Assembly (NCBI RefSeq): GCF_030684315.1
Contig: NC_081373.1
Span: 40,711,989 to 40,775,988, forward strand
DNA: 64,000 nucleotides
Source: Stegostoma tigrinum
Lineage: Eukaryota
Direction: 5' to 3'
Shown: one piece after another, positions 1,346-41,938 of the stretch
Layout of the letters: each line of letters starts with the position of its first letter
How positions within the stretch are numbered: position 1 is the stretch's first letter
Notes under the pieces: generated by a model
What the model saw: the letters and a program-made list of their open reading frames with translations, nothing else
Told to the model about the DNA's origin: nothing
The model's database searches: none
Made by a program: the position numbers and the translations under genes

Positions 1346-2418
1346 CAGATGCAGCCTACTCACACAGGCCTAGGCCACTACCCTGAGGAACTCCTGCAGG
1401 AGGCCTGGAGCTGAAATGACTGACTTCCATCAACCACGACCGTCTTCCTTCGTGTCAGGTATGACTCCACCACCAGAGAGTTTTTCCCCGATACCCATTG
1501 ATTCCAGTTTTGCTCGGGCTCCTTGATGCCACATTCGGTTAAATGCAGCCTTGATGTCAAGGGCTGTCGCTCTCACCTCTCCTCTGGAATTCAGCTCTTT
1601 TGTCCATGTTTGAACCGAGGCTGTAATGAGGTCAGAAGCTGAGTGGCCCTGGTAGAACCCAAACTGGGCATCACTGAGCAGGTTATTGCTGAGCAGGTGC
1701 TGCTTGATAGCGCTGTTACTGACACCTTCCATCACTTTACCAATGATCAAGGCTGAACTGATGGGGCAGTAATTGGCCAGGTTGGATTTGTCCTATTTTT
1801 TATGTATAGGATATACTTGGGCTATTTTCCACATTGTTGGGTAGACGCCAGTGTTGTAACTGTACTGGCACAGTTTGGATAAGGGAGCGGCAAGTTCTGG
1901 AGAACAAGGCTTCAGTACTATTGCCGGAATATTGGCTGGGGCCATAGCTTTGCAATATCCACTGTCTCTAATCATTTCTTGCTATAACGTGGAGTGAATG
2001 GAATTGGCTGAAGACTGGTATCTGTGATGCTGGGGACCGCTGGAGGAGGCCGAGATGGGTCATCCATTCAGCACTTCTGGCTGAAGATCGCTGCAAAAGC
2101 TTCATCCTTATCTTTTGCACTGATGTGCTGGGCTCTTCCATCATTGAGCATGGGGATATTTGTGGAGCCTCCTCACGACTGGATGTGGCAGGACTGCAGA
2201 GCTTAACCTGATCTGTTGTTTGTGGGATCGCATAGCTCTGTCTGTCATTTGCTGCTTACTCTGTTTCGTGTGCAAGTAGTCCTGTTTGGTGGCTGCACCA
2301 GGTTGACACCTCATCTTCAGAGATAATGGGAACTGCAGATGCTGGAGATTCCAAGATAATAAAATGTGAGGCTGGATGAACACAGCAGGCCAAGCAGCAT
2401 CTCAGGAGCACAAAAGCT

Positions 2419-2446
2419 GACGTTTCGGGCCTAGACCCTTCATCAG
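2419..2446 (-). ncRNA. Minimal hammerhead ribozyme motif (left PLE arm; sense to DNTT pre-mRNA)
   Basis: Exact reverse complement of 5845-5872. Confidence 0.8.
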
Positions 2447-2670
2447 AGAGGGGGATGGGGGGAGGGAACTGGAATAAATAGGGAGAGAGGGGGAGGCGGA
2501 CCGAAGATGGAGAGTAAAGAAGATGGGTGGAGAGAGTGTAGGTGGGGAGGTAGGGAGGGGATAGGTCAGTCCAGGGAAGACGGACAGGTCAAGGAGGTGG
2601 GATGAGGTTAGTAGGTAGCTGGGGGTGCGGCTTGGGGTGGGAGGAAGGGATGGGTGAGAGGAAGAACCGG

Positions 2671-4312
2671 TTAGGGAGGCAGAGACAGGTTGGACTGGTT
2701 TTGGGATGCAGTGGGTGGGGGGGAAGAGCTGGGCTGGTTGTGTGGTGCAGTGGGGGGAGGGGACGAACTGGGCTGGTTTAGGGATGCAGTAGGGGAAGGG
2801 GAGATTTTGAAACTGGTGAAGTCCACGTTGATACCATATGGCTGCAGGGTTCCCAGGCGGAATATTAGTTGCTGTTCCTGCAACCTTCGGGTGGCATCAT
2901 TGTGGCAGTGCAGGAGGCCCATGATGGACATGTCATCAAGAGAATGGGAGGGGGAGTGGAAATGGTTTGCGACTGGGAGGTGCAGTTGTTTGTTGCGAAC
3001 TGAGCGGAGGTGTTCTGCAAAGCGGTCCCCAAGCCTCCGCTTGGTTTCCCCAATGTAGAGGAAGCCGCACCGGGTACAGTGGATGCAGTATACCACATTG
3101 GCAGATGTGCAGGTGAACCTCTGCTTAATCTGGAATGTCATCTTGGGGCCTGGGATGGGGGTGAGGGAGGAGGTGTGGGGACAAGTGTAGCATTTCCTGC
3201 GGTTGCAGGGGAAGGTGCCGGGTGTGGTGGGGTTGGAGGGCAGTGTGGAGCGAACAAGGGAGTCACGGAGAGAGTGGTCTCTCCGGAAAGCAGACAGGGG
3301 AGGGGATGGAAAAATGTCTTGGGTGGTGGGGTCGGATTGTAAATAGCGGAAGTGTCGGAGGATAATGCGTTGTATCCGGAGGTTGGTAGGGTGGTGTGTG
3401 AGAACGAGGGGGATCCTCTTGGGGCGGTTGTGGCGGGGGCGGGGTGTGAGGGATGTGTCGCGGGAAATGCGGGAGACGCGGTCAAGGGCGTTCTCGATCA
3501 CCGTGGGGGGAAAGTTGCGGTCCTTAAAGAACTTGGACATCTGTGATGTGCGGGAGTGGAATGTCTTATCGTGGGAGCAGATGCGGCGGAGGCGGAGGAA
3601 TTGGGAATAGGGGATGGAATTTTTGCAGGAGGGTGGGTGGGAGGAGGTGTATTCTAGGTAGCTGTGGGAGTCGGTGGGCTTGAAATGGACATCAGTTACA
3701 AGCTGGTTGCCTGAGATGGAGACTGAGAGGTCCAGGAAGGGGAGGGATGTGCTGGAGATGGCCCAGGTGAACTGAAGGTTGGGGTGGAAGGTGTTGGTGA
3801 AGTGGATGAACTGTTCGAGCTCCTCTGGGGAGCAAGAGGCGGCGCCGATACAGTCATCAATGTACCGGAGGAAGAGGTGGGGTTTGGGGCCTGTGTAGGT
3901 GCGGAAGAGGGACTGTTTCACGTAACCTACAAAAAGGCAGGCATAGCTGGGGCCCATGCGGGTGCCCATGGCCACCCCCTTAGTCTGTAGGAAGTGGGAG
4001 GAGTCAAAAGAGAAGTTGTTGAGTGTGAGGACGAGTTCAGCTAGGCGGATGAGAGTGTCGGTGGAGGGGGCCTGGTCGGGCCTGCGGGACAGGAAGAAGC
4101 GGAGGGCCTTGAGGCCATCTCCATGCGGAATGCAGGTGTACAGGGACTGGACGTCCATGGTGAATATGAGGTGTTGGGGGCCAGGGAATTGGAAGTCCTG
4201 GAGGAGGTGAAGGGCGTGGGTGGTGTCACGGACGTAGGTGGGGAGTTCCTGGACCAAAGGGGAGAAAATGGAGTCCAGATAGGTGGAGATGAGTTCGGTG
4301 GGGCAGGAGCAG
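2671..4312 (-). CDS. PLE reverse transcriptase + GIY-YIG endonuclease, 5'-truncated open frame (left copy)
   Basis: Motifs FTMDVQSLYT, QTKGVAMGTRMGPSYACLF and RYIDD; Cys-rich linker PCNRRKCYTC; VVYCIHCTRCGFLYIGETKRRLGDRFAEH (GIY-YIG). The ORF start at 4335 is only read-through from the opposite arm. Confidence 0.9.
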
Positions 4313-4318
4313 GGGCAG

Positions 4319-5620
4319 GCCATGGGCACCCACATGGGCCCCAGCTATGCCTGCCTTTTTGTAGGTTACGTGGAACAGTCCCTCTTCCGCACCTACACAG
4401 GCCCCAAACCCCACCTCTTCCTCCGGTACATTGATGACTGTATCGGCGCCGCCTCTTGCTCCCCAGAGGAGCTCGAACAGTTCATCCACTTCACCAACAC
4501 CTTCCACCCCAACCTTCAGTTCACCTGGGCCATCTCCAGCACATCCTTCACCTTCCTGGACCTCTCAGTCTCCATCTCAGGCAACCAGCTTGTAACTGAT
4601 GTCCATTTCAAGCCCACCGACTCCCACAGCTACCTAGAATACACCTCCTCCCACCCACCATCCTGCAAAAATTCCATCCCCTATTCCCAATTCCTCCGCC
4701 TCCGCCGCATCTGCTCCCACGATAAGACATTCCACTCCCGCACATCACAGATGTCCAAGTTCTTTAAGGACCGCAACTTTCCCCCCACGGTGATCGAGAA
4801 CGCCCTTGACCGCGTCTCCCGCATTTCCCGCGACACATCCCTCACACCCCGCCCCCGCCACAACCGCCCCAAGAGGATCCCCCTCGTTCTCACACACCAC
4901 CCTACCAACCTCCGGATACAACGCATTATCCTCCGACACTTCCGCTATTTACAATCCGACCCCACCACCCAAGACATTTTTCCATCCCCTCCCCTGTCTG
5001 CTTTCCGGAGACATCACTCTCTCCGTGACTCCCTTGTTCGCTCCACACTGCCCTCCAACCCCACCACACCCGGCACCTTCCCCTGCAACCGCAGGAAATG
5101 CTACACTTGTCCCCACACCTCCTCCCTCACCCCCATCCCAGGCCCCAAGATGACATTCCAGATTAAGCAGAGGTTCACCTGCACATCTGCCAATGTGGTA
5201 TACTGCATCCACTGTACCCGGTGCGGCTTCCTCTACATTGGGGAAACCAAACGGAGGCTTGGGGACCGCTTTGCAGAACACCTCCGCTCAGTTCGCAACA
5301 AACAACTGCACCTCCCAGTCGCAAACCATTTCCACTCCCCCTCCCATTCTCTTGATGACATGTCCATCATGGGCCTCCTGCACTGCCACAATGATGCCAC
5401 CCGAAGGTTGCAGGAACAGCAACTCATATTCCGCCTGGGAACCCTGCAGCCATATGGTATCAATGTGGACTTCACCAGTTTCAAAATCTCCCCTTCCCCT
5501 ACTGCATCCCTAAACCAGCCCAGTTCATCCCCTCCCCCCACTGCACCACACAACCAGCCCAGCTCTTCCCCCCCACCCACTGCATCCCAAAACCAGTCCA
5601 ACCTGTCTCTGCCTCCCTAA
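4319..5620 (+). CDS. PLE RT C-terminal half + GIY-YIG endonuclease, 5'-truncated open frame (right copy)
   Basis: Same protein from AMGTHMGPSY onward with only a few substitutions. The C-terminus has three 13-aa repeats (SPPPTAxxNQPSS). Confidence 0.9.
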   Translation, partial: AMGTHMGPSYACLFVGYVEQSLFRTYTGPKPHLFLRYIDDCIGAASCSPEELEQFIHFTNTFHPNLQFTWAISSTSFTFLDLSVSISGNQLVTDVHFKPTDSHSYLEYTSSHPPSCKNSIPYSQFLRLRRICSHDKTFHSRTSQMSKFFKDRNFPPTVIENALDRVSRISRDTSLTPRPRHNRPKRIPLVLTHHPTNLRIQRIILRHFRYLQSDPTTQDIFPSPPLSAFRRHHSLRDSLVRSTLPSNPTTPGTFPCNRRKCYTCPHTSSLTPIPGPKMTFQIKQRFTCTSANVVYCIHCTRCGFLYIGETKRRLGDRFAEHLRSVRNKQLHLPVANHFHSPSHSLDDMSIMGLLHCHNDATRRLQEQQLIFRLGTLQPYGINVDFTSFKISPSPTASLNQPSSSPPPTAPHNQPSSSPPPTASQNQSNLSLPP

Positions 5621-5844
5621 CCGGTTCTTCCTCTCACCCATCCCTTCCTCCCACCCCAAGCCGCACCCCCAGCTACCTACTAACCTCATCCCACCTCCTT
5701 GACCTGTCCGTCTTCCCTGGACTGACCTATCCCCTCCCTACCTCCCCACCTACACTCTCTCCACCTATCTTCTTTACTCTCCATCTTCGGTCCGCCTCCC
5801 CCTCTCTCCCTATTTATTCCAGTTCCCTCCCCCCATCCCCCTCT

Positions 5845-5872
5845 CTGATGAAGGGTCTAGGCCCGAAACGTC
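5845..5872 (+). ncRNA. Minimal type I hammerhead ribozyme motif in PLE 3' region
   Basis: CTGATGA-A-GGGT(CTAG)GCCC-GAAA-CGTC^AG: both conserved core boxes, stem II, and the short palindromic stem III typical of PLE minimal hammerheads. Confidence 0.8.
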
Positions 5873-8190
5873 AGCTTTTGTGCTCCTGAGATGCTGCTTG
5901 GCCTGCTGTGTTCATCCAGCCTCACATTTTATTATCTTGACACCTCATCTTCAACTGTGTTTAGTGCTGCTCCTGACATGCCCTCCTGCACCCATCCCCT
6001 GGGTTGATGGTAATGGTTGAGTGGGGGATATGCCAGACCATGAGGTTACAGATTGTGCTGAAATTCAATTTCACTACTGTTGATCGCCCACAGCACCTCA
6101 TGGATGGCCAGTCTCAAGTTGCTCTTTGAAGTCTGTCCCATTTAGCATGGTAATAGTGCCACACAACACGATGGAGGGTGTTCTCAATGTGAAGGTGGGA
6201 CTTCGTCTCCACAAGGACTGTGCAATGGTCACTCTTACTGATACTGTCATGGACAGATACATCTACAGCTGACAGATTAGTAAGAATGAGGTCAAGTATG
6301 TTTTTCTCTCTTGTTGGCCCCTTCACCGCCTGCCATAGACCCACCCGAACAGTTATGTCCTTTAGGACGCCCTTAGCTCGATCAGTAGTACAACAGCCGG
6401 GCCACTTTTGCTGGTGGATATTGAAATCCGTCACCCACAATGCATTTTGTGCCCTTGACAATCCTCAGTGCTTTTTCCAAGGATTCTTCAGCCTGGGGGA
6501 ATACTGATTTATCAGCTGAGGCAGGACAGAATGTGGTGATCACATGGAGGTTTCCTTGCCCATGTTTAACCTGAAGCCATGAGTCTCCATGGGGTCCAAA
6601 GTCAGTGTTGCGGACTCCCAGAGCAACTCCCTCCTAACTGTATACCATTGTGCGGCCACCTCTGCTGGGTCTGTCCTGCTGGCGGGACAGAATTTCTCCA
6701 GGAATGGTGATGATGGTGTCTGAGACATTTTCCGTAAGTTATGATTCCATGAGTATGACTATGTCAGGCTGTTGCTTGACTAGTCTGTGGGATAGCTCTC
6801 CCAATTTTGGCACTAACCCCCAGATGTTTGTGAGGAGGACTTTGCAAAGTCTTCATGGCTGTTTCTGCTGTTGTCTTTTGGTGCCTGGGTCGATGCCAGG
6901 TGATCCGTCCAGTTTCATTTCTTTGAGACTTTGTAGTGATTGGTATGACTGATTGGCTTGTTAGGCCATTTCAGAGTGTGGTTTAGAGTCAATCACCTTG
7001 CTGTGCATCTGGTGTCACAAATAGGTCAGACCAGATGAGGATGGCAGATTTCCTTCCCTGAAGGACAATAGCGAACCAGATCAAAAATCTTGTCATTGTC
7101 GGAGGTAAGGAAATTTAGTCAATGAGAATCGAGAAGGTAGATGATCAGGGCTTGCTGTGAGCTAAAACGTGAAGCAACATTTTGAATGAGATCAAGTTTA
7201 AGGTGGGGAGGGTACAGAAATAGTGAAAGCTAGATGCAGCAAATAAACTGACACAGGGCAGAGAGGGTAATGCAGTGGAGGTGGGACCAGGTGATCGTGA
7301 TAATTAAAAGGCAATGGTGTTGAACTTTCACCTCAGTGTCAAATTTCAAACATTCTGGTAGAGCCTGAGACAGTACCAAGCAAAGGGATGAGATGAATGC
7401 CTAGTGAATGGAGTTTGTGGCAAGGAGCAAAGACAGTAGTTTCAGTCTTTCTAATATTTAATTAGGAGAAATTTCTTTGCATCCAAATTAGGAAATCTGA
7501 CAAGCAGCATAACAAATTAAAGGCAGTGGCGAGCTCAGGACAGTTGGTAGTGAATTAGAGTTAGAACATCAACAGCACACTTGTACAAACTGGCACAGCG
7601 CTTTCAGATGGTGTCACTAAGCAACAGCTAATGGATGAGAAACAGGACAGAGCCATGGACACATCCTCAGGAACTCGAGAGGTAACTTCGTAGGAGACAA
7701 CGAGAAGCCATTACAAGAAATACAATGATTATGATTGAGTAGGAATGGAAGAAGGAATGGCAGACCCATAAAACTCGATAATCGAAGACAAGTGTTGGAG
7801 GATGATGGTATGATCTATTATTTTAATAGTTTCATTTACTATTTAAGTGCATCAGTTGCCTGACACAGCGTAATATTTAATAACTTCAAGCCTGTCACAT
7901 AAATATTGTTTGACATGTATTCTCAGTTGTTCTTTCTTACCAATATCCTTGAATCTCCTTGCTATCTGGATGAGAAGCCATTAATAACAGATTTGCCAAA
8001 ATAAGATGTCACTTTTATTCAGTTTAAGCAATTGTACAGCACGTGTTCGAATGATGCAGAATGATCAGCTATCTTTCATCTCACTGGAGTTAAAACAAAA
8101 TAACTTTGTGCACTCAAGAATGCTGGCAAGCCTTACAGTAAACATGCATAATACTGGAGCTCATGGTTAATTCTGTAAGGTAAAATTTAC

Positions 8191-8365
8191 CTGAAGCTTA
8201 TGCCGTTCCTCTATTTCCACAGGCTTTCCAGCAGCCATGCTGTCTGTGAACCAGGAGATATTGAGCATCTTAAGCTTGTCTGCATTTAACAGCTTCAGGT
8301 TTTGAATCCAGTCCCAAATTTCATTCCAAGAATTATTCTCTGTCACAATATGTGTGACTGAATCA
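8191..8365 (-). CDS. DNTT: DNTT coding exon 2 (rest of BRCT domain); not in the ORF track
   Basis: Acceptor TTTTTGTTTCAATAG| and donor CAG|GTAAAT bound 175 nt. The phase fits exon 1 (AG+T = Ser). It reads (S)DSVTHIVTENNSWNEIWDWIQNLKLLNADKLKMLNISWFTDSMAAGKPVEIEERHKLQ, like human SDSVTHIVAENNSGSDVLEWLQ...LLDVSWLIECIRAGKPVE. Exon 3 was not found, so it probably lies left of the window. Confidence 0.96.
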
Positions 8366-11611: not shown

Positions 11612-12478
11612 CTGCCCCCACACATCCTCCCTCACCCCTATCCCAGGCCTCAAGATGACATTCCACATTAAGCAGAGGTTCACCTGCACATCTGCCAATG
11701 TGGTATACTGCATCCACTGTACCCGGTGTGGCTTCCTCTACATTGGGAAAACCAAGCGGAGGCTTGGAGACCGCTTTGCAGAACACCTCCGCTCAGTTCG
11801 CAACAAACAACTGCACCTCCCAGTCGCAAACCATTTCCACTCCCCCTCCCATTCTTTAGATGACATGTCCATCATGGGCCTCCTGCAGTGCCACAATGAT
11901 GCCACCCGAAGGTTGCAGGAACAGCAACTCATATTCCGCCTGGGAACCATGCAGCCTAATGGTATCAATGTGGACTTCACCAGTTTCAAAATCTCCCCTT
12001 CCCCAACTGCATCCCTAAACCAGCCCAGATCGTCCCCTCCCCCCACTGCATCACACAACCAGCCCAGCTCTTCCCCCCCACCCACTGCATCCCAAAACCA
12101 GTCCAACCTGTCTCTGCCTCCCTAACTGGTTCTTCCTCTCACCCATCCCTTCCTCCCACCCCAAGCCACACCCCCATCTACCTACTAACCTCATCCCACC
12201 TCCTTGACCTGTCCGTCTTCCCTGGACTGACCTATCCCCTCCCTACCTCCCCACCTATACTCTCTCCACCTATCTTCTTTACTCTCCATCTTCGGTCCGC
12301 CTCCCCCTCTCTCCCTGTTTATTCCAGAACCCTCACCCCATTCCCCTCTCTGATGAAGGGTCTAGGCCCGAAACGTCAGCTTTTGTGCTCCTGAGATGCT
12401 GCTTGGCCTGCTGTGTTCATCCAGCCTCACATTTTATTATCTTGGAATTCTCCAGCATCTGCCGTTCCCATTATCTCT
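11612..12478 (+). mobile_element. 5'-truncated PLE (same family): GIY-YIG region, 3' UTR, hammerhead at 12350-12377 and complete 3' tail
   Basis: Near-identical to 5108-5939 plus the tail. TSD CCACACCATC at 11602-11611 and 12479-12488. Confidence 0.93.
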
Positions 12479-19987: not shown

Positions 19988-20199
19988 CTCATGACATCTT
20001 CGACTCTGAATCCTTTCTTGCGTGCTAAGTCCATCAGAAACGATCTTCTACTCGATCCCATTTTTCTTTCTACAATAAATATGATCAGATCTTGAAATCT
20101 GACTTCATGTTTACTTTGTGAACTGCAGACTTCTGTCACTTTCTGCCTTTTCCTCTTTGGTATGATTCCCATTCCTCCCAGGCTTCCTGCTAAGCTCAT
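19988..20199 (-). CDS. DNTT: DNTT (terminal deoxynucleotidyl transferase) coding exon 1: NLS and start of BRCT domain
   Basis: Translation MSLAGSLGGMGIIPKRKRQKVTEVCSSQSKHEVRFQDLIIFIVERKMGSSRRSFLMDLARKKGFRVEDVM matches the vertebrate TdT N-terminus (human ...PRKKRPR...IKFQDLVVFILEKKMGTTRRAFLMELARRKGFRVENEL). It ends in a phase-2 donor AG|GTACAC at 19988/19987. Confidence 0.96.
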
Positions 20200-38370: not shown

Positions 38371-39559
38371 CAATATTTGAGATTTTAGCAGTGAATAACA
38401 AAGATACTGCCAGATGCCCAGTTTCACTACATTAGATTACATTAACTCATGTACATCAGTGAGCTCGTGATAGCGTCCATTCATGATCTTCAGATGTAGA
38501 GAACGCACCTGCATGTGACACTGAGGTCACTATGCAGTGCTGTATTAGCTGCTCAGGAATTGGCAAACGGAATTGTTTGTACAAAGATAAATGTTTCTTT
38601 TTGTTCATTAATGGGAAGTTGGTATTACAGGGTAAGCCAACATTAAGGCCCACCATTATTGCCCTGGAGAAGGTGGTAGTGATCTGCCTTCTTGGACTGC
38701 TGCGATCTATGGGTGTAGGTACACTCAGAATATTTTTAGGAAGGGAGTTCAGGGAAGTCAGGAATGATGTGTGGATTCAAGAGGAATTTGCCATGTGGTG
38801 GTGTTCCCAAGCATCTGCTACCCCATGTCCTTTTTGATGGCAGAGTTTGTAGGTTTGGAAAGCGCTGTTGAAGGACCCTTGGTGAGTTGATTCAGTGTAT
38901 CTTGTAGATGGTACATACAGCTGCCGCTGTGCCCGTGGTGGAGGGAATAAATATGAAAGGCAGAGGATGGGGTGCCAACCAAGAAAACTTCTTGGTCTTG
39001 AATGGTGTTGAGTTTGTTGAGTTTTGCTGTTCCAGGCAAAAATATTCCACCTCACACCTGACCTGACCCTGTAAATACTGGACAGGTTTGGAAAATTTAC
39101 TTTCTACTTTGCAGTAAACCTGAGCGGTGTGACATTACTCATTGAATGCGCGTTCACCGTACTAAATCTCTAGCAGGATTGAGGGAGACTCTACACCACA
39201 GCGACTACAACAGCTTCAGGCTGAGGCTCACCAATACCTTCTTTAAGGATGATTCGGGATGGCGTATAAATGTCATCTCAGATGTACCCCTCAAAAAATA
39301 CAAATAATTGCATTATTTATATAATTCCAAAATATTTATGCATTTCGTTTGCACCATAAACTGAAATCAACGTAAAAGCGTGATAAAAATAGCACCAAAA
39401 AGCTTCATGTCAGAAAATATATCCATATTCCTATATGTAATAATATAACAAGCGGAATGGTGAACAGCCCTCTACAGCTGCTTGTTACACTTTAGCAGCT
39501 GACGACTTTTCTCAGCAATTCAGGTGTCCATCAGGTATAATCTCCAAATTTCTTTTGTA

Positions 39560-39760
39560 ACTGTCCGTCATTTTGGTCAGACTAACATGCGATTGCGTGA
39601 AATAGACGTGGGGGGAGTCCCATTGCATACTGTGAACTCCAGGTCTTGAAAGCTTCCGCCTTGTACCGGGAGAGAGCGGAGCAGGAATTAGTTATCAGAA
39701 GTAAAAACACAACGATCAGATCAAAGGCCGAGGTAGCGAGCTCTGCAGCGTACAATGGCC
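39560..39760 (+). promoter_or_regulatory. CpG-enriched putative promoter/5' UTR of the SAM-adaptor (BLNK) gene
   Basis: Non-repetitive stretch with visibly more CpG than the flanks and ETS-like cores (CTTCCG, CAGGAA), directly upstream of the ATG. Confidence 0.45.
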
Positions 39761-39829
39761 ACAAAGTTACCAACTCGGGAAGAGTTTGAAAGTTGGAGAC
39801 CTAGGGAGCTAGCAGAATTCCTGAGACTG
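39755..39829 (+). CDS. BLNK: SLP-76-family adaptor, first coding exon (SAM domain start); probably BLNK
   Basis: ACAATGG Kozak context in a locally CpG-rich region; 75 nt encoding MATKLPTREEFESWRPRELAEFLRL, then donor CTG|GTAAGA. It resembles LCP2 MALRNVPFRSEVLGWDPDSLADYFKK. The BLNK name rests on the known head-to-head DNTT-BLNK synteny. Confidence 0.75.
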
Positions 39830-40240
39830 GTAAGACGGAACTTTCCTCTCGTTTAAATACAAATTTCATACAGGCTTAAGTAGCTGTTAAACCGTCGCCT
39901 TCGTTTCACTTTAAGAATTGTTTATACACAGCGATAGCTCACAAAAACGTGACAAGATAAATGCGAATATACGGGGGGGGGAAACTGCAATAGATATTTA
40001 AGGCAATCCAGGAAGGTTACTTTTTTGTTAGGTAAAAAACATTATTGTGGACAAGGAGTGCCATTGGAGGATGAGATGTGATCTCTTGTTGACGCACTTA
40101 TTCCAATTATAAACCTAAAGCCCATTGTTAATTATGCAAGGTTTTGCCTCAAATATATCACTTGGACTTAGATCAATTGTGACTTTTGGACAAGCTAATA
40201 TTTGAAGCTAAATATTTCCTTGTTTCTCACTTATACACAG

Positions 40241-40303
40241 AATAATTTAAGTGAACCTGCCAGTGTGGTGGAAAGGCACAAAATTTCTGGGACAATGCTT
40301 TTG
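40241..40303 (+). CDS. BLNK: SLP-76-family adaptor, second coding exon (SAM domain); probably BLNK
   Basis: Acceptor TTTCCTTGTTTCTCACTTATACACAG| and donor TTG|GTAAGT; 63 nt, phase 0/0. NNLSEPASVVERHKISGTMLL aligns without gaps to LCP2 LNYKDCEKAVKKYHIDGARFL (SAM 'I-D/S-G-x-x-L-L' motif). Confidence 0.75.
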
Positions 40304-41938
40304 GTAAGTTTAATGATAAAAATATGCTTTCCTTCATAAAGTTGAAATGTCATCTTTATTTGTCCTTGGAGTTTTCAACTTACATGCCTCTTCAAAGAGG
40401 CATACAACGTGGAAATGGACCATTTTCTCCAACCAGCCCACACTGACCATTATCCCAAACTAAACTAGTTCCACCTGCCTGCGCTTTGCCCCTATCCCTC
40501 CAAACATTTTTTAATCATGTTCTTACCCAAATGTCTTTTAAATGTTGTAACTATACCCACATCCACGATTTCCTCTGGAAGTTCATTCCATACATGAACC
40601 ACTTTTTTTTAGAAAAAGATGCCCTTAATGTTTTTTTTTAAATCTTACTCATTTCATCTTAGAAAATATAGCCCCTTGTCTTTAAAATCCCCCACTCCAG
40701 GGAAAAGATACCTTCCATTTACCTAACCTATACCCCTCATGATTTTATAAACCTCTGTAAGGTCACTCCTCAACATGCTGCACTCCAGTGAAAAATATCC
40801 AGCCTTTTCTTATAATTCAAACCTCTATTCCTGAGAACATCTTGGTAAATCTCTTCTGAACCCCCTCCAGTTTAATGACCTCCTTCGTATAACTGGGTGA
40901 CCAGAACGGGACACAGTACTCCAGAAGACACGACAGCCCAACTCGTATACTCGGAGGTCTGAGCAATGAAGGCAAACATGCCAAACACCTCCTTAAACAC
41001 CCTGTCTATATGTGATGCCAATTTTCAAAAAATTATGTACCTGAGGTCTAGATCTTTCTCCTCTACAACACTACCTAAGGCCCTACTTTTAATTTTATAA
41101 GTCCTGCCCTTGTTTGTTTTACCAAAATGCAAATCGTCCCACTTATCCAAATTTAAACTCCATCTGCCACTCCTCAGCTCACTGACCCAATTGATCAATA
41201 TCTCTTTGTAATCTCAGGTACCTTCTTTGTCAGACATTTTCATTGTCCACTGTAGTACCAAATTTAGCGTCATCCGTAAACTGACTAAACATGCCCTCTA
41301 TATATTCTCATTCAAGTCATTTAAAGAAATACCACACAGAACTTTGTCAAAAGCTCTACTAAACAAGTAAACAATGCCTCCTGATCTGCCGTCATCAGTC
41401 TTCTTAGTTACTTCCTCAAAAGAGTCAATCAAGTTTGTGAAAGTGTGATTTCCCTCGCACAAAACCATACTGACTATCCTTAATCATTCCTTGCCTTTCC
41501 AAATGCATTTAAATCCTTTAGAATCACCTCAAACAACCTACGCACTAACAAAGTCAGACTTACTGGTCTATAGTTCCCAGACTTCTCCTTGCATCCTTTC
41601 TTAAACTAAGGCACAACATTAGACACTTGTCAGTCTTCTGGTACCTTACTCAAATTTATAGACAAAGCAAATATTTCCGCAAAGGGCCTCATGGTTTCAT
41701 CCCTGACTTCCACAGTGTCTTGGGTCCCCTAGTTCAAGTCTCGGAGATTTATCCACTTTATATTTGCTAAGACCTCTAGCGCTTCCTCTTCTGTAATGTG
41801 AACTGTTTTCAAAACATCAATATTTATTTCCCTGTGTTCTCTAGCCTCCATTTCTCTCTCAACAGTAAAACCTGATGCAAAATATTCCTATAATATCGTT
41901 TTCAACTCCAAAGATGATCTGTTTGATCTTTAAGGGGC

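Follow-up and report, generated by a model that had tools for sequence, protein, structure and literature searches.

A predicted SAM domain in a long BLNK isoform of the zebra shark, and the BLNK 'leucine zipper' as its probable last helix

Two short coding exons of the zebra shark genome were confirmed as the real start of a long isoform of BLNK (SLP-65). They lie in a window of 64,000 nucleotides (G000:C24:40711989-40775988, + strand), which denotes the whole stretch of DNA that was analysed; a further 200 kb downstream were examined, and positions there continue the window numbering. Our preferred reading, to which we assign a probability of about 0.7, is that long BLNK carries a predicted SAM domain and that alternative promoters choose whether the last helix of this domain (helix 5) is packed or bare. 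The gene and its models are already public; the new part, apparently unremarked so far, is the reading of the so-called leucine zipper of BLNK as helix 5.

The first exons of long BLNK and the surrounding locus

Exon 1 (39755..39829, + strand, 75 nt, phase 0) starts with the ATG at 39755, ends at a GTAAGA donor and encodes an N-terminal helix and the first SAM helix; exon 2 (40241..40303, + strand, 63 nt, phase 0-0) is preceded by a pyrimidine tract with CAG, followed by a GTAAGT donor and encodes the two middle SAM helices. Splice sites, phases and translation were as expected from the original prediction, which had described two clean phase-0 exons of this length. Their product equals residues 1-46 of the RefSeq 'B-cell linker protein' isoforms X1/X2 of the zebra shark (XP_048407075/6). 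Exon 1 alone gave no matches against the PDB at E<=10. From 40304 to 64000 the window holds the beginning of the 42-kb intron 2 (+ strand), with the remainder of the gene beyond it. Exon 3 had been reported missing from this part, correctly, its site (82739-82785, + strand, 47 nt) being 18.7 kb past the window end; it is also among the 19 candidates of a splice-site scan run without a gene model.

Isoform X1 aligned to the + strand in 26 colinear blocks with splice sites, from 39755 to 243506. An 88-kb intron separates exon 3 from exon 4, the 66-nt exon shared by the long and short forms (171315-171380), and the 41-nt first exon of the short form (MEKLSK, 144571-144611) lies within it. The 57-nt cassette exon (174601-174657) follows directly after the shared exon, an exon with the YENP/YEDP/YEPP tyrosine motifs was located by motif scan (198274-198441) and the SH2 exons were located by motif and protein search (239816-243506). 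A Pfam SH2 search of the genome gave no match on this contig (C24) among the 106 listed, the split SH2 being recovered by the motif and protein searches. With the SH2 exon as query, 350 proteins were found, of which most of the 120 listed were named B-cell linker protein and the best was that of the zebra shark. The splicing of the SAM exons to the downstream BLNK exons is based on RefSeq models and homologues. A search of RNA data with 39640-40310 returned no RNA data set among its matches, and the four sequencing runs spanning the exon 1-2 intron in one contig have no exon-exon joint and behave as DNA.

Exon 2 is skipped in frame in the models of bamboo shark isoform X4 (P0005) and crocodile isoform X3 (P0019), which would break the SAM fold and keep helix 5. 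The 57-nt cassette exon is an alternative one in sharks, frogs, reptiles, birds and monotremes; it was absent from the therian N-termini examined, possibly a second therian loss.

The eight isoforms of the zebra shark cluster begin in four ways, two each with the SAM exons, MEKLSK, MKGVR and MLISLHK. The candidate MKGVR first exon (94666-94679, + strand), taken from a zebra shark isoform model, resembles starts modelled in chimaera (MKSVR) and monotremes (MNTLR). Judged from these starts, BLNK may have three old promoters. A putative distal promoter with the 5' UTR of long BLNK occupies 39550..39754 (+ strand) in a stretch that retains CpG: the observed/expected ratio is 0.94 in 39550-39949 vs 0.29 across the 264-kb region, a value reached by 0.3% of 5272 windows. 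The short start is CpG-poor (o/e 0.23), and this contrast hints at different regulation of the two starts. GATA motifs near the BLNK starts were about as frequent as expected by chance (0.79 per 300 nt), and GATA, ETS and E-box motifs were left out of the argument.

The contrast in CpG content also fits different cell ranges of the two starts. The long form might be a minor or non-B-cell transcript, in which case it would have no part in B-cell receptor signalling and all jawed-vertebrate B cells would use the short form. Consistent with this, blnk marks both B cells and a T-cell subset in the bamboo shark according to parts of a report in which isoforms were not resolved (PMC11372145). The SAM exons, however, are open and conserved from chimaera to birds (14 of 84 columns of the long N-termini invariant) and in monotremes, which argues for a selected protein. 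We consider such a minor or non-B-cell transcript possible but rather doubtful; it denies the place of the long form and not its function, and is compatible with the promoter choice that we favor.

The head-to-head arrangement with DNTT given in the original prediction was also found. DNTT coding exon 1 (19990..20199, - strand) has its minus-strand ATG at 20199, 19.6 kb from the BLNK ATG, and best matches the BRCT domain of TdT (2COE, E 4e-13), with a weaker match to Pol mu (1.4e-8); a search with DNA_pol_B_palm did not find DNTT. In mammals too, DNTT is the divergent neighbor of BLNK. On the DNTT side of the window, past a DNTT exon near 8355, 2345-3980 and 4311-5946 form a GC- and CpG-rich inverted repeat of 1636 nt, 99% complementary with a 330-nt spacer. 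Each arm contains a 39-nt tandem unit that recurs at 11994, 16411 and 33912. The arms are either two recent, oppositely oriented copies of a dispersed repeat or an error of the assembly.

Gene identity and the predicted SAM domain

Several sequence comparisons support the identity of the gene as BLNK, not LCP2. The whole protein matched the BLNK SH2 domain (2EO6) with an E value of 3.9e-53, and YxxP tyrosine motifs (YENP, YEDP, YEPP) are present in an acidic region. Four related SH2 exons were found in the genome, on C24, C52, C1 and C15. Catshark LCP2 maps to C15, where four separate SAM exons are located. Coding exons 1-4 measure 75/63/47/66 nt in BLNK vs 78/63/47/66 nt in zebra shark LCP2, with identical phases; the lengths of 78 and 63 nt given in the original prediction for LCP2 exons 1 and 2 hold for the shark's own gene. 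In a SAM tree of 30 rows, whose labels 'LCP2like' and 'invert' were assigned by us and only some of whose names came from tools, the zebra shark protein grouped with chimaera and ray BLNK (100/98) apart from an LCP2-like clade (95/95). An SH2-based tree had been suggested as a check. Built from 36 rows and, like the SAM tree, leaving reference CLNK and SH2D6 proteins outside, it placed LCP2 together with the C1 exon in a separate clade (97/94), and the BLNK group (89/76) has long-branch lamprey rows inside. The SH2 exons on C52 (C52:11073467-11073619) and C1 (C1:78965967-78966113) are of the SLP-76 family, with 67% and 51% identity to that of BLNK; our guess is that they belong to SH2D6 and CLNK.

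The SAM exons could in principle stem from LCP2, CLNK or a small separate gene and have been fused to BLNK by the gene predictor, as the 42-kb and 88-kb introns around exon 3 and a 79-residue bamboo shark model (P0236) that departs from the BLNK sequence after exon 3 might suggest. Against this, LCP2 is already equipped with four SAM exons on C15, and identical junctions are seen in BLNK models of numerous species as well as in Logan contigs of the tuna cluster. Exon 3 also ends in the phase required by the shared exon. A fusion is very improbable and already largely refuted.

Residues 1-75 of the long form are predicted to fold as a SAM domain of the SLP-76 type, in agreement with the similarity to the N-terminal SAM of SLP-76/LCP2 noted in the original prediction. 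A profile built from 19 long BLNK N-termini matched the human LCP2 SAM domain (PDB 2EAP) with an E value of 2.1e-14 and one gap; the next match had an E value of 0.0099, and the weaker matches were mostly other SAM domains. The AlphaFold2 model of the shark N-terminus (pLDDT 81.6) contains helices at residues 8-12, 16-25, 29-37, 42-47 and 61-73, and its top match in Foldseek was again 2EAP (TM 0.84, rmsd 2.1). A two-copy complex prediction with residues 1-78 scored 0.11 (mark 0.32). Recognition by general SAM profiles was only partial: Pfam SAM_2 gave an E value of 0.0014 on the shark protein, at 19.2 bits below the cut-off of 20.5, and among 13 long forms a SAM family was matched in nine and the cut-off passed by two, with no match in the long forms of chimaera, sawshark, devil ray and one turtle. 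Owing to these weak Pfam scores the BLNK SAM is easily missed by annotation pipelines. Exon 3 of cartilaginous fish departs, in the region of helices 3 and 4, from a pattern common to bony vertebrates and LCP2. Because of this divergence and because helix 4 comprises just three residues in the AlphaFold2 model, the shark SAM may be a more derived, atypical one.

Helix 5 and the distribution of long and short forms

In RefSeq models both starts splice to one shared exon, which encodes residues 63-84 of the shark long form, i.e. helix 5 and a tail. Residues 17-38 of human BLNK align to this segment without gaps, which places helix 5 at human residues 17-29, in the 'zipper' region. Human L18, M21, V22 and I25 align with I64, I67, V68 and I71 of the shark and with L65, L68, S69 and I72 of cat LCP2, and their spacing corresponds to one helix face. 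In SAM domains this face packs on the core. I25 of human BLNK is critical for membrane association. In all four short forms analyzed, the hydrophobic moment peaks over helix 5 (0.8-0.9) and the net charge of the N-terminus is +5 to +8. The human 'leucine zipper' is thus likely, on the basis of the alignment, the last SAM helix in a bare form.

The original prediction had considered the mammalian zipper a possible leftover of the last SAM helix. This holds for helix 5 itself but not for the MDKLNK-type start, which is no product of truncation: a separate old first exon (at 144571) exists beside the SAM exons in the same shark gene. Orthology between this short first exon and SAM exon 3 was rejected, as both are found in one gene and the in-register score is -22.6. 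With a shift of six residues the two exons scored 6.7; since 5 of 200 shuffles, made on subsets, scored as high, this is a weak hint at most of an exon duplication.

Long models were found not only in sharks, but also in chimaera, bony fishes, frogs, reptiles, birds, platypus and echidna. Among the 120 listed of the 350 proteins matching the SH2 exon, 51 exceeded 15 bits against a model restricted to exons 1-3, itself built from proteins of the same set and their clusters, and 38 did so across almost the whole model. A query with shark residues 1-75 found just nine proteins, all from cartilaginous fish, and is too narrow to define the distribution. A wider search, covering 1.84 billion representatives, extended the set to bichir, mormyrid, wrasse, dragonet, tuna and further frogs, followed by LCP2-like proteins and by SAM-SH2 proteins of lamprey and invertebrates. 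Since lamprey and invertebrates possess such proteins, carrying a SAM is probably ancestral for the adaptor family. The earlier proposal of an ancestral SAM kept in shark BLNK was right about the BLNK with a SAM domain but is not specific to sharks, and such a BLNK was not unannotated, given the existing RefSeq models and the precomputed Pfam entries that mark SAM in one frog and one platypus protein.

Long and short models occur together in zebra shark, whale shark, bamboo sharks, chimaera, bichir, mormyrid, tuna, toad, platypus and echidna, and both forms would date to the last common ancestor of jawed vertebrates. Logan contigs of the tuna cluster (1.8-2.2 kb) contain complete reading frames of the long (P0399, P0400) and the short form (P0401); a multi-exon frame in a contig of about 2 kb points to spliced RNA. 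Among ten monotreme isoforms, four have the SAM, three a METFNK and three an MNTLR start. An opossum query yielded 401 proteins, and the 120 listed comprised three with SAM (platypus and two turtles), 104 with a short start and 13 with other starts. SAM exons 1-3 were detected in none of 187 therian (marsupial or placental) sequences above 5 bits; these are annotated proteins and not genome DNA, redundant, in part fragments and in part unnamed and assigned by similarity. A single loss of these exons, in the common ancestor of marsupial and placental mammals, is likely.

Proposed roles of packed and bare helix 5 and related systems

We propose that the choice of promoter sets the state of helix 5, which is either packed into the SAM fold or left exposed as an amphipathic helix able to bind vesicles. 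Residues 1-45 of human SLP-65 bind small vesicles, and both granules and calcium flux depend on them (PMC7016142). By extension, bare helix 5 of the short form would be the basic amphipathic element responsible for binding to small vesicles and for priming CIN85 condensates. In the long form, the other helices would hide the hydrophobic face (human L18, M21, V22 and I25), and so vesicle binding would be poor. Once the receptor is triggered, the long form would instead probably assemble via contacts between SAM domains, by analogy with SLP-76, whose SAM domain forms dimers and tetramers as described in excerpts of PMC3795252. The same excerpts state that SLP-76 with helix 5 alone still self-associates, with smaller and more numerous clusters and stronger activation.

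More tentatively, at somewhat under even odds, we suggest a promoter switch between two clustering modes throughout jawed-vertebrate history, of which therians kept the short form only; the zipper would then be a SAM helix freed of its cover, and a SAM isoform may have gone unnoticed in bird B-cell models.

The SAM might alternatively fold but serve as an autoinhibitory cap or bind other proteins, e.g. another SAM protein, in place of self-clustering, and the long isoform would then damp or redirect signaling. To our knowledge, self-association has not been reported for most SAM domains. The full SAM limits the output of SLP-76 relative to helix 5 alone (excerpts of PMC3795252), and the kinase ACK1 is a further binding partner of the SLP-76 SAM (excerpts of PMC5391757). 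The self-association of the SLP-76 SAM, the closest relative, speaks against a mere cap or binder, which we hold to be unlikely; it would share the gene structure and the masking of helix 5 with our preferred reading and differ in the last step only.

A full-text literature search retrieved, judged by title and the beginning of the abstract and with most subscription journals and supplements outside its scope, neither a SAM-bearing vertebrate BLNK isoform nor an equation of the zipper with helix 5. The N-terminal region of SLP-65 is termed a leucine zipper in passages of PMC4850452, PMC3283690 and PMC8965026. The terms BLNK, SLP-65, SLP65 and 'leucine zipper' do not occur in PMC3795252, nor does 'SAM domain' in PMC7016142. 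With the present reading, the BLNK N-terminus, called a zipper and then a curvature-sensing lipid-binding region, gains an origin and a structural reference and is tied to the helix-5 experiments on SLP-76. The masked and bare isoforms form a natural pair suited to exchange experiments in SLP65-deficient DT40 cells, the loss of a domain is dated to the therian stem, and studies of non-mammalian BLNK should name the start used.

The closest known system is SLP-76/LCP2 (2EAP), which shares with long BLNK the SAM fold, four exons of near-equal length with their phases, the acidic tyrosine motifs and the C-terminal SH2 domain, but is encoded by a separate gene on C15 with an exon 1 of 78 nt instead of 75. 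Mammalian BLNK/SLP-65 resembles the shark gene in its SH2 domain, its tyrosine motifs, the gap-free shared exon and the neighboring DNTT; the shark gene has both starts, whereas the SAM exons are absent from the therian set with its 0 of 187 positives. The engineered SLP-76 variant dN57, in which helices 1-4 are deleted (excerpts of PMC3795252), is comparable to short BLNK in presenting helix 5 without the remainder of the SAM on an SLP adaptor. Short BLNK, in contrast, is natural and arises via an alternative first exon, and its published role is lipid binding and not self-association. Finally, the 'BLNK-like' SAM-SH2 adaptors of lamprey and invertebrates, including a sea-star protein with SAM (excerpts of PMC11593052), share an N-terminal SAM-like region with long BLNK, match the profile (lamprey E 1.4e-12, crayfish 4.7e-6, soft coral 3.1e-4) and may be orthologous to either BLNK or LCP2.
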